Assembly: GCA_029547225.1 (NCBI GenBank)
Contig: JAKPPS010000024.1
Coordinates: forward strand, 893-64,892
Source of the DNA: a bacterium
Lineage (GTDB): Bacteria; Patescibacteriota; Dojkabacteria; SC72; WJKH01
Length of the DNA: 64,000 bases
Reading direction: 5' to 3'
This document shows positions 13,955 to 42,515 of this stretch, one piece after another. The notes beneath the pieces are model-generated. The model was not told where the DNA came from. It did no database searches and saw nothing but the letters and a program-made list of their open reading frames with translations. Position 1 is the stretch's first letter; each line of letters begins with the position of its first letter. Position numbers and translations under genes: made by a program.

Positions 13955-14209
13955 TTTTTTGTATCCATGCGCTTTCTTATAAGCGATATTGTACCATTGC
14001 AATAAAATCCGTCACTGTGTAATCATCTTATTCACGCGTTCTTGAAATAATCGGTTAATCGATGAATATCAATTTTTCTATAGCCATTATTGAAAACTCC
14101 AAAAGTGATTGTGGTAATTTCTCAGATAAATGCACGGTTTGTAATGGTGATGGATAATTTTGAAAAAATACGCATGGTTATAAAAATTATTAAGTTAAAA
14201 AGTTAAAAG

Positions 14210-17921: not shown

Positions 17922-18038
17922 TGCCGAGGACAGGACTTGAACCTGCAACCCCGCTGACTATACTCAATCGATTATTAAGTACAAACAGCGGGGACATGCT
18001 CCTAAGGCATGCGTGTCTGCCAGTTTCACCACCTCGGC
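17922..18038 (-). tRNA. tRNA-Leu (anticodon UAG) with an extremely long variable arm (117 nt in total)
   Basis: Acceptor GCCGAGG/CCTCGGC, D arm GTG-AAACTGGCAGA-CAC, anticodon stem CATGC/GCATG with loop CTTAGGA, T arm GCAGG-TTCAAGT-CCTGT, discriminator A. The variable region is about 48 nt: CCCCGCTG...CAGCGGGG enclosing a further 11-bp AT-rich helix. Confidence 0.85.
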
Positions 18039-19983: not shown

Positions 19984-21096
19984 TTATTGTCGTAGTGTGT
20001 CGTCAACGAAAACAGGTATATCTTTTTTACTTTCATTATTGATTATATCTTCCGATTTATCGAGATAGAGATATATAGTTCCTCTACCTGAGCCTTTTGT
20101 GCTTAGATAGCCCTTTTCAAGTAAGTCTTGTAAATCTCTAAAAGCAGTCATAAATGAAATACCCATAAGCTTTGAATATTCTTGACGAGAAATTTTCTTA
20201 TGAATATTTAAGTACTCAATCGCCTTTATTTGTCGATTATTTAAGTCGAGAGAAAGCTGTGCGTGATTTTTAACTTTTGATTCATAGTTCGAAGAAATAT
20301 TTGTTTCCAAAGAGATAGTTTCTAACAAAATAGAATAGAGTAGGGCTTCGATAAAAGCAGTCTGATCTTTCTTAGATTTAGAAATTTTGAATGCTTCTAA
20401 AAGATTCTCACCAAGATTATTATAGATTTTACTGATCACTTGGAGATTATCAATGTTATATCCGAACTCCTTGAGAAGTAATCCTGTAAATATTACAGTT
20501 GTCACCTGATTTCCAACGAAAAAAGGAGATTTATCAATCATTTCATAGTTTAGTATCGCAAGTCGAATAAGTTTATGAATTTTAATTTTAGGATCTACGG
20601 TCCAATCGCATAAATCATTGAGAAATGATGAGACATCTAATTGTGGATAATAATCCCTATACTTGTACCAATTGTCATAAATATCGTTTGGTTTCTCACT
20701 AAAAGTTCTAAATTTCCCTGTTTCCCATTCATCTACGATACCTGACATAGCAAGTCTATTGATGTGAATTAGTAAATCAGCAGAAGGTTTAATAAATTGC
20801 ATCTGATTGTAGGTCTTAACAAACTCATTAATACTACGATAGTTAATAAACAGTTTAAGCTTAGTTTTATCAGAAGGAAGCTCTTTACCTTTTTGAATCA
20901 ATAAAGCTTTATTTAACCCAATTTTGTAACCTGTAAGTTCTCCGAGGAAATAAATATCATCTGTCTTTTGAAGCTGATAAATATCGTTTTTCACATTGTA
21001 AGGTAACGGAAGTCCTTTAATTTTATTAGCAGAGAGTTCAATACGGATAATATAATCCAATATCAAGTTTGTTATAGTAAAAGTAGGTAAATTCAT
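19984..21096 (-). CDS. Fic/Fido-domain-like protein with a degenerate active-site motif and a C-terminal winged-helix domain
   Basis: SPFFVGNQVTTVIF occupies the position of the Fic motif HPFxxGNGRxxR (His replaced by Ser, GNGR replaced by GNQV). The C-terminus (ISRQEYSKLMGISFMTAFRDLQDLLEKGYLSTKGSGRGTIY) looks like a wHTH. Confidence 0.5.
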   Translation of the reverse strand: MNLPTFTITNLILDYIIRIELSANKIKGLPLPYNVKNDIYQLQKTDDIYFLGELTGYKIGLNKALLIQKGKELPSDKTKLKLFINYRSINEFVKTYNQMQFIKPSADLLIHINRLAMSGIVDEWETGKFRTFSEKPNDIYDNWYKYRDYYPQLDVSSFLNDLCDWTVDPKIKIHKLIRLAILNYEMIDKSPFFVGNQVTTVIFTGLLLKEFGYNIDNLQVISKIYNNLGENLLEAFKISKSKKDQTAFIEALLYSILLETISLETNISSNYESKVKNHAQLSLDLNNRQIKAIEYLNIHKKISRQEYSKLMGISFMTAFRDLQDLLEKGYLSTKGSGRGTIYLYLDKSEDIINNESKKDIPVFVDDTLRQ

Positions 21097-21117: not shown

Positions 21118-21282
21118 GGTATGCCACCAACCTTATTGCGTTCCAATAATCTTATTCCATGACTACCCGAGCATTTTTTGAAGATACACCGCTATCACGA
21201 AGCCATACATCAGTTTTTTTTGAAAAACAACCCATGGATAGTGATGGGGAGCGGTCGTCAATGCTATTTGCTCGGATACATT
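21118..21282 (-). repeat. copy A of a conserved four-box structured element (candidate ncRNA or MITE-like repeat)
   Basis: Shares ordered boxes with 39957..40123 and 42465..42515. On the plus strand here they read GGTATGCCACCAACC, CCATGACTACCC, CATGGATAGTGATGG and ATTTGCTCGGATACAT. The strand is inferred from G-U pairing. Confidence 0.6.
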
Positions 21283-21358: not shown

Positions 21359-21432
21359 AGCTGGTGGGCGGGATCGAACCGCCGACCTGCTCATTACGAG
21401 TGAGCTGCTCTAGCCAACTGAGCCACACCAGC
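21359..21432 (-). tRNA. tRNA-Thr (anticodon CGU)
   Basis: Acceptor GCTGGTG/CACCAGC, anticodon stem GCTCA/TGAGC with loop CTCGTAA, T arm GGCGG-TTCGATC-CCGCC. Confidence 0.92.
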
Positions 21433-22581: not shown

Positions 22582-23541
22582 TTATTCTGCCCATTCAGAT
22601 TTTTGAATTATCTCTGAAAGGATCCAATCAAAATCACCATTAACTACATTAGCGTTACAATATTTACATTTACCGGCTACATCAACAGATATAGGTGCAC
22701 CACAGTTTGGACACTTTTTATCAAAGATGCCATCTTTAACTTTAGTTTTAAGATTCGATTTTCTAATAAATGACCAGTATTCAGTAAATGGAGGCTGTTG
22801 ATCTTTTGAACCCTCAATGACTACATCAGGTTTATCTTCCTTGACTTTATAATCCTTCATAGAAGCTCGGATTTTGATAACAATCTTATGGAAATCTTGT
22901 CCTAAATCTATTTTAGCGAAATCTGCGCTACCTACAACAATATATTCAAGAACATTAATTGTTTTGTTTTTAATCATATTTTCAATCTGCATCTGATGGC
23001 TTTGGTATACTTCTTCACCCATAAACGGACGACAAATTGCTTGATCTCTCTTTGTCCAGCCTTCTTGAACTGCCATAAACACTTTCTTGACATGAGTTTT
23101 AAATTTCTGCTCATCAAAATCAGGATCGATCGATTTTAATTCAGATAATTTTGTAGCAATTTCCTCTGGAGTTTGTGACCTGTTAGTTGTAGGTACAGAT
23201 GAAGATGTGCCACCAGCAACAGGTGTTGCACCTGAACCTCCGCTACCACCTTTTCGTTTGTTAATTATAGAGACCACAATGATAAATACAACAATTGCAA
23301 TGAAAATAGCGACTTGACAGCCAACAGGAGTATCAGATGAACCTGAAGAAGAATAATACGAGCCTGAATCCCAGTCACTTGAGCTTGAACCCCAATCACT
23401 AGAACTCGAACTTGAATCAAATCCTCCATCACCAAAACTCTCTCCACCACCAGCACGCGCTGAAACAAAAGTAACAGCCATAATAAATACTGTAAAAGAA
23501 ACAATTATAATTGACAGTAATTTCGGCAATTTATTTCGCAT
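22582..23541 (-). CDS. membrane protein with a Ser/Gly-rich region, a Tim44-like domain and a C-terminal zinc ribbon
   Basis: Signal/TM helix, an SSSSSDWGSSSSDWDSGS low-complexity stretch and a second TM helix. This is followed by DPDFDEQKFKTHVKKVFMAVQEGWTKRD...(Tim44-like as I recall it) and CPNCGAPI...CKYCNA. Confidence 0.5.
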   Translation of the reverse strand: MRNKLPKLLSIIIVSFTVFIMAVTFVSARAGGGESFGDGGFDSSSSSSDWGSSSSDWDSGSYYSSSGSSDTPVGCQVAIFIAIVVFIIVVSIINKRKGGSGGSGATPVAGGTSSSVPTTNRSQTPEEIATKLSELKSIDPDFDEQKFKTHVKKVFMAVQEGWTKRDQAICRPFMGEEVYQSHQMQIENMIKNKTINVLEYIVVGSADFAKIDLGQDFHKIVIKIRASMKDYKVKEDKPDVVIEGSKDQQPPFTEYWSFIRKSNLKTKVKDGIFDKKCPNCGAPISVDVAGKCKYCNANVVNGDFDWILSEIIQKSEWAE

Positions 23542-27127: not shown

Positions 27128-27252
27128 CTTTCTTTTCTTCTAGGACAATGCGCTTCTTAATTATGCCATTCGTGTGTCAATATATCCGAGTATATTTGCG
27201 ATCTTTTGTATAATCAATTGCATGCTCGTGCAATCTAATATATATTATCTCT

Positions 27253-39932: not shown

Positions 39933-39956
39933 CAATATTTATCAGTTATGTTTTCT

Positions 39957-40123
39957 ATGTATCCGAGCAAATGTCGCTCGCGACCTCTATCCATCACCAT
40001 CCATGAGCATATTTTCAAGAAGAGCTCAAATATGGAAGATGTGTAAACGGTGATTTTGAAAATCAACGATTGGGTAGTCATGGTACGAGCTAATTAAGTT
40101 GGTAAAACGGTAGGTGGCATACT
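39957..40123 (+). repeat. copy B (full length) of the conserved four-box structured element
   Basis: ATGTATCCGAGCAAAT (39957), CCATCACCATCCATG (39991), GGGTAGTCATGG (40072) and GGTAGGTGGCATAC (40109). It fills the convergent dedA/gpmI intergenic region. Confidence 0.6.
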
Positions 40124-42402: not shown

Positions 42403-42464
42403 TATTCTTCATTATGTAATAATATATTTCTGCCGTGTAAAAGATTGTAATATGCTCAGTGCAT

Positions 42465-42515
42465 GGGTAGTCATGGATATTAATTTTTGGAACGCAATTA
42501 GGTTGGTGGCATACC
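42465..42515 (+). repeat. copy C (3' module only) of the conserved structured element
   Basis: GGGTAGTCATGG, 24 nt, then GGTTGGTGGCATACC. 44 of 51 positions are identical to the reverse complement of 21118..21168 by my hand alignment. Confidence 0.55.

Follow-up and report, generated by a model that had tools for sequence, protein, structure and literature searches.

The four-box element between a tRNA-Thr gene and a Fic-like gene of a Dojkabacteria genome is one copy of a modular repeat. The repeat is built from an 83-nt unit and is dispersed over intergenic regions without orientation bias. The stretch of DNA analysed, 64,000 nt in length, is referred to here as the window. With somewhat better than even confidence, we interpret the family as a non-autonomous, lineage-specific MITE/REPIN-like repeat whose boxes are putative recognition sites of a trans-acting transposase or recombinase. 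Among the possibilities raised by a first-pass annotation of this DNA, the evidence favours the fallback, a MITE-like repeat.

Copy A is located at 21118-21282 on the minus strand and copy B at 39956-40122 on the plus strand. Both carry the same four boxes in the same order; in a pairwise alignment, the spacing is nearly identical and the spacer sequence largely different. In copy A, box 4 (21119-21132, GGTTGGTGGCATAC) and box 3 (21157-21168, GGGTAGTCATGG) are exact matches, box 2 lies at 21233-21247 and box 1 at 21266-21281, all on the minus strand. The sharing of four ordered boxes, originally noticed by inspection, was confirmed with counts above chance. Box 4 has three matches in the window against 0.23 expected and box 2 three against 0.15, counts reached by no dinucleotide shuffle. 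Boxes 1 and 3 have at least two exact matches each. Copy A starts 76 nt after tRNA-Thr(CGU) (21359-21432, minus strand) and ends 21 nt ahead of the ATG of a Fic/DeoR-HTH gene (19984-21096, minus strand), the position initially assigned to it. Copy B is found between convergent VTT/DedA-family and iPGM genes. A third copy, implied by the earlier annotation, is present as a solo 3' half: copy C (42434-42515, plus strand; nhmmer E = 1.5e-17) consists of a core module with boxes 3 and 4 only and is located 32 nt downstream of tRNA-Gly(UCC).

The four boxes had been taken for parts of one RNA. They belong to two units: boxes 3 and 4 form an autonomous 83-nt module, and boxes 1 and 2 lie in an inverted, diverged copy of it. 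According to the nhmmer profile, the 83-nt core module starts with CGTG and continues to GGGTAGTCATGG, about 10 variable nucleotides, TTGGAACGCAAT and GGTTGGTGGCATACC. In copy A, the core module is the 3' arm (21118-21199, minus strand; profile positions 2-83 of 83, E = 1.2e-19), and boxes 1 and 2 are on a class I 5' arm (21202-21282, minus strand; class I arm profile, E = 9.6e-24). The corresponding parts of copy B are a class I 5' arm with boxes 1 and 2 at 39956-40036 (plus strand; class I arm profile, E = 2.3e-21) and a core module with a variant interior at 40040-40122 (plus strand; nhmmer E = 1.4e-10).

The module of boxes 3 and 4 stands alone at about half of the loci. Three upstream classes are distinguished: a class I arm, a class II arm or nothing. 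Class I arms, with boxes 1 and 2, are present in copies A and B and at the loci L003 and L008. Class II arms begin with TATAACCATGCGCTG, contain CCGTCACCATTACAATCC and occur at about 11 distinct loci. Solo modules were found at about 14 loci, including copy C. When the modules are reverse-complemented, they can be aligned with arms of both classes over about 83 nt. The alignment brings together the termini (GGTATGCC, ATGTATCC or TATGTAACC), a box at equal offset (CCATGACTACCC, CCATCACTATCC or CCATTACAATCC) and the inner end, TCAC(G/A). The 5' arm of copy A aligns over its full length with the reverse complement of the core module and is a diverged, inverted core unit. All arm types align in inverted orientation, which makes the 165-nt element an imperfect palindrome of two such units. 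Judged from these alignments, box 1 is the diverged inverted counterpart of box 4, and box 2 that of box 3. Each arm of about 83 bp thus has two conserved boxes, a subterminal GGGTAGTCATGG and a terminal GGT(T)GGTGGCATACC, with starts 40 bp apart or about four helical turns. The homology of the arms in inverted orientation extends over about 83 nt, and at the termini, TATGTAACCAACC, ATGTATCCGAGC and reverse-complemented GGTTGGTGGCATACC, the match is imperfect. Unit sizes range from 83 to 226 nt, all non-coding. Long versions were also seen, in which a class II-like arm and a core module enclose an AT-rich interior of 270-470 nt without an ORF (L133 1-614, L026 2202-2636).

The window harbours in total three core modules and two extra arms in 64 kb. 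One extra arm is of class II and has no adjoining core module (14101-14183, minus strand; class II arm profile, E = 2.5e-11). It is faced by a diverged class II-like arm at 13960-14045 on the plus strand, with the outer terminus TGTATCCATGCGC; this arm was recognised by eye and by alignment with other arms, and its assignment is less certain as it lies below the profile threshold. Together, they form a 226-nt inverted arm-arm element of two class II-type arms (about 13960-14185) between the L27 and SpoU-methylase genes. Strains with about 2% divergence in other regions have an almost identical element. A counterpart of the L27/SpoU site was looked for in the sister species and not found. In the spacer after tRNA-Lys(UUU), 27129-27252, the sequence ATATATCCGAGTATAT has three mismatches from box 1 and is preceded by CGTGTGTC. 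This sequence, which is below the profile threshold, may represent a decayed arm of class I.

Copies beyond the window were searched for with the pattern GGGTAGTCATGG-N15-40-GGTGGCATAC, which permits a distance of 27-52 nt between the starts of boxes 3 and 4. The pattern is present at 37 metagenome-contig loci, and individual contigs of 40-121 kb carry three to four copies. Neither the 185,579 species-representative genomes scanned nor the viral contigs contain the exact pattern. BLAST against plasmid and phage collections revealed no DNA similarity, and the module profile had no match in 80 iPGM-flanking loci of other bacteria and archaea. An nhmmer scan of about 340 kb recovered the pattern-found copies and a single further, truncated copy, in L030, which lacks box 4. 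In total, 38 distinct modules were gathered, roughly one per 13-30 kb of contig. DNA similarity between the window and the metagenome loci is confined to the elements. The Fic-like protein is identical to one listed under Candidatus Dojkabacteria at NCBI. The host genome, with a GC content of about 33%, recurs in metagenomes of anaerobic digesters and activated sludge.

All copies are intergenic, and their neighbours are ordinary housekeeping genes, among them dnaX, uvrD, an EPSP-synthase-family gene, mutL and translation GTPases. At about 29 distinct loci, all four gene-orientation contexts are occupied: between co-directional genes, the element is in sense at about 7 loci and in antisense at about 8-9; about 4 loci lie between divergent and about 5-6 between convergent genes. 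Because copies occur in all four contexts, no oriented cis-regulatory role fits, and an oriented promoter or leader function was rejected. The proposed association with tRNA trailers does not generalise. A tRNA is located within 100 nt at about 4 of the about 29 loci, in mixed orientations.

Candidate transcription signals were inspected in the modules. The sole recurring sigma-70-like feature is GTGGCA in box 4 as a weak -35 sequence, with chance -10 boxes in the flanks. An intrinsic terminator was considered on account of a terminator-like hairpin over box 2 of copy A and was rejected; the hairpin is not kept in copy B, L003 or strain L119. The sigma-54 consensus of the -24/-12 type is TGGCACG-N4-TTGCW. 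By eye, the module interior TGGAACGCAATTTGG / TGGAACGCAAT(T/C)TGG, for example at 42478-42493, resembles such a site. It has no GC at -12 and is absent from copies with a variant interior.

The repeat family, as seen in the sequences compared, is confined to one small clade, and copies are gained and lost between sister species. The sister species has 81-86% protein identity; its locus L133 was reached via an 81% identical iPGM protein. The site of copy B is empty in L133, where the VTT and iPGM genes are separated by only 25 nt. The site of copy C is also empty: the spacer from tRNA-Gly to the ORF measures 109 nt, compared with 189 nt in the window, and has no module match. Conversely, L133 has a module beside an HTH gene (535-614) where the window has an empty 2-nt gap (44051/44054). 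In the sister species, the site of copy A is occupied by no more than a solo module. More distant Dojkabacteria with a 51-56% identical Fic protein have kept the synteny of tRNA-Thr and Fic, and the element is absent there. Over 195 nt, copy A shares 91% identity with the L008/L030 copy; the similarity stops at the element edges and the flanks are unrelated. The family has both young and old copies, because this high identity coexists with retention of a module over about 25% divergence of coding DNA at another site.

The first-pass annotation had described a plain MITE as dispersed copies with target-site duplications and without covariation. Dispersal and the lack of covariation were both found; a duplication was not seen. 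The junctions are AT-rich, often TA or TAA, and ambiguous, and no consistent target-site duplication was visible. Most copies have a TA 1-3 nt from their 3' end. Comparison of the filled and empty site C suggests no duplication, with intergenic DNA in the sister species too diverged for exact boundaries. Automatic alignments of filled and empty sites are unreliable in such diverged AT-rich spacers.

A transposase, integrase or RAYT-like gene was not detected on the 68-kb contig (GCA_035424305.1, DAOODH010000009.1, 68,129 nt) to which the window was assigned via its iPGM gene. None lies beside any copy examined, and no autonomous element with matching ends was seen. Among 160 distinct ORFs in the loci, six paralogous groups were formed; their nine proteins include no transposase.

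The repeat shares features with several known systems. Like the bacterial MITEs of the Correia type in Neisseria and the ERIC and RU elements of enterobacteria, it is 80-230 bp long, non-coding, multi-copy and strictly intergenic, has inverted arms able to form a long hairpin when transcribed, and differs in presence and absence between close relatives. Correia elements duplicate TA at the insertion site, whereas the Dojkabacteria repeat has no demonstrable target-site duplication. It further differs from these elements in its poor terminal inverted repeats, in paired arms that are systematically different, in solo arms that are as frequent as pairs, and in lacking a known parent insertion sequence. 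Strict membership of the MITEs is withheld because the target-site duplication and the parent insertion sequence are unproven.

A REP is a GC-rich imperfect palindrome of 20-40 nt with a 5' GTAG and a stable hairpin; REPINs are mobilised by RAYT transposases of the Y1 HUH type. The Dojkabacteria unit resembles REPs and REPINs in occurring singly or as an inverted doublet, in being extragenic, long-lived and vertically retained, in the GTAG inside GGGTAGTCATGG of the core, and in resident copies that are apparently under selection. In contrast to the REP palindrome, the unit is about 83 nt long with two boxes 40 nt apart, and has only a weak box 3:box 4 stem of 5-9 bp enclosing about 31 nt. Copy numbers also differ, with inferred tens per genome compared to hundreds of REPs, and the 68-kb contig has no RAYT gene. 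The missing REP hairpin and RAYT gene are the reason for not assigning the repeat to the REPINs in the strict sense. Pneumococcal BOX elements share the alternative sub-units, the intergenic dispersal and the folding potential upon co-transcription. Their modules are different and without sequence similarity, and BOX is a direct A-B(n)-C arrangement, unlike the inverted copies of one unit in Dojkabacteria.

In a mobile repeat of this kind, the boxes would be recognised by a trans-encoded transposase, recombinase or another sequence-specific protein. Protein-recognition sites of this kind would explain why the boxes are invariant at a fixed spacing while the rest drifts. Copies would spread, or be maintained, through the box-recognising protein. 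A paired copy co-transcribed with its neighbour, such as copy A in the spacer from tRNA-Thr to Fic, could fold into a long imperfect hairpin, probably a by-product and not the selected function. The mobile repeat has its weak points: no transposase was found, no target-site duplication was shown, and the inverted repeats at the termini match imperfectly. Solo arms equal pairs in frequency, an awkward finding if the repeat were a classical two-ended cut-and-paste MITE. A further weak point lies in the signs that purifying selection acts on resident copies. Because of these weak points, a host-retained role of the REP/BIME or REPIN type is kept as the main rival.

Such a host-retained, REP/BIME-like site, to which we give a modest chance, would be bound at its boxes by a host protein (nucleoid-associated, gyrase-like or other) or would serve as a transcript stabiliser or processing site, and would be selected copy by copy. 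It draws on the conservation of the boxes. The starts of boxes 3 and 4 are 40 nt apart in 34 of the 38 modules and 39 or 41 nt in the other four. The view of the first-pass annotation that boxes and geometry are conserved and spacers are not agrees with this strict spacing. Outside the 22 positions of the search pattern, the mean pairwise identity of the 38 distinct modules is 63% (range 36%-97%), and the invariance of the boxes themselves is in part an ascertainment effect, since most modules were found via them.

An unbiased case is L128, which was reached via an 86% identical Fic protein and has a solo module at the orthologous tRNA-Thr/Fic site. By hand count, all 30 positions in box 3, box 4 and the 5' TCGTG are identical to the window, compared with 18 of the 53 remaining module positions (34%). 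At the orthologous MutL-BipA loci L026 and L037, the module was kept in both species, 22-24 nt from the shared convergent stop codon, at a coding-DNA identity of 73-76%. Box-damaged copies were absent from the about 340 kb scanned, save the L030 copy, which keeps box 3 and lacks box 4. The perfect boxes at an otherwise randomised orthologous site and the lack of decayed copies argue for purifying selection acting on each resident copy, unlike in a purely selfish, dead MITE. The missing transposase also speaks for a host-retained site. Several observations speak against it. The sister species does without copies at sites B and C and has one at another site, and the family is wholly absent from close relatives. 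The positions of the copies follow no consistent rule with respect to promoters, gene ends or orientation, and the ascertainment via boxes weakens the argument from their invariance.

Close strain pairs cannot test the constraint on the boxes, as both members of each pair were found via the box pattern. Strain L119 has 13 differences in the 165 nt of copy A, which is in the top 6% of windows, and none in boxes 3 and 4, where about two were expected; this deficit is not significant. The overall divergence of L119 is 1.8%. L123, at 2.1% overall, has no difference in copy A. Variability is much higher again in other intergenic stretches, near 23400 and 26400. This pattern suggests mosaic recombination among strains. 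The 10-nt variable segment differs between L002 and L018 and between the window and L119, strains that are only 1-2% apart, and is therefore unconstrained. A guide-RNA-like reading of this segment was rejected on the same observation.

There is also a small chance that the 83-nt unit is a selection-maintained site in an ultra-small CPR genome. It would then be either a bipartite protein-recognition element, in a REPIN-RAYT-like partnership or as a 'punctuation' system of the chromosome or transcripts, or a multi-copy RNA in which a fast-changing 10-nt segment lies between two invariant boxes. This reading is compatible with the perfect boxes at the randomised orthologous site, with the strict 40-nt phasing and with the absence of decayed copies.

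A structured non-coding or cis-acting RNA, formed by pairing of box 2 with box 3 and box 1 with box 4, or of box 3 with box 4 within the module, is improbable. Cmscan of the whole window at gathering threshold detected tRNAs only. For copies A and B, a search with E values up to 10 yielded chance-level scores of 11-19 bits against thresholds of 35-90. The element is in this respect, as had been supposed, not a known RNA family in Rfam. The pairing of box 2 and box 3 with ten Watson-Crick pairs, one G-U pair and one mismatch had been counted correctly, according to a hand check. The nested two-stem fold built on it did not stand up in the comparison of five distinct class I copies. Although 96.5% of the cells in the two stems are paired, the 17 pairs include no compensatory change, and the three varying pairs are all broken, among them by two changes in box 2 (strain L119 and copy B, one each). 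Copies A and B also differ in their minimum-free-energy folds, with a z of -2.8 for copy A and, for copy B, a z of -0.73, no improvement on shuffled sequences.

Some observations favour an RNA. RNAalifold with 33 modules predicted a box 3:box 4 stem, GGTA-GTCAT with GTGGC-A-TACC, which includes G-U pairs. In 12 of the 15 full-length copies, the top strand gives a better fold than its complement (mean z about -1.7 compared with -0.6), because the mismatches between the arms are G-T rather than A-C. In a hand comparison of the arm classes, the box and the terminal pentamer can form a 5-bp stem with a loop of 29-31 nt, in which one position is C-G, A-U or G-U, a weak sign drawn from three lineages. 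The tRNA-Thr promoter probably also drives transcription of copy A. Other results speak against an RNA. The long box 3:box 4 stem of RNAalifold never varies, with a covariation term of -0.37 kcal/mol, and stems with invariant paired positions carry no information. The strand of the intra-arm stem that is compatible with wobble pairs is opposite in the two arms of a pair, which fits DNA ends better than a single transcript. By eye, neither a shared hairpin in module positions 6-32 nor pairing of AATCAG with CTGGTT keeps a consistent register or shows compensating changes in the variable regions, and both candidates were discarded. The copies are sense and antisense to their neighbours about equally often, and no conserved promoter or terminator brackets the module.

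A tiny gene is very improbable. A 13-codon ORF, MPPTxLRSNxxxP*, on the reverse strand of the module begins at an ATG in box 4 and stops at a TGA in box 3 (for example, window 21118-21170, plus strand). Of 37 distinct modules, 29 have it intact at exactly 13 codons, the variant-interior modules of L003, L026 and L128 among them. It is broken in copies B (8 codons) and C (4 codons) and six others, has no Shine-Dalgarno sequence ahead of it by eye and essentially random middle codons, and is not kept in the homologous class I and class II arms. A fixed 40-nt spacing and a short interior often leave a frame open by chance, and the ORF is probably a by-product of this spacing.

No published account of a dispersed repeat family from CPR/Patescibacteria came to light; the top matches of a limited full-text literature search on Dojkabacteria and repeat elements included no Dojkabacteria paper. 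As a MITE/REPIN-like repeat, the family could serve as a strain or species marker for these Dojkabacteria in digesters and activated sludge, and as a handle for finding the box-recognising protein. If selection indeed keeps the boxes on each resident copy, the family would represent a domesticated repeat system in a minimal genome. It also holds a caution for RNA-motif discovery: the conservation of boxes and spacer lengths does not indicate a structured RNA here.

Two unusual RNA genes were observed besides the repeat. At 17922-18038 on the minus strand of the window, the Rfam tRNA model scored 49.5 bits over 117 nt at a site missed by ARAGORN. The sequence looks like a tRNA-Leu(UAG) with a hairpin of about 45 nt (CCCCGCUG...CAGCGGGG) as variable arm, far longer than a normal class II variable arm. 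In L025 (1308-1736, minus strand), ARAGORN called a tmRNA of 429 nt with an unusually long predicted tag of 32 residues (ANISSFTAKLVDGVKSAFASVSGAFALNYSLA). This call may be a mis-call or a peculiarity of Dojkabacteria.
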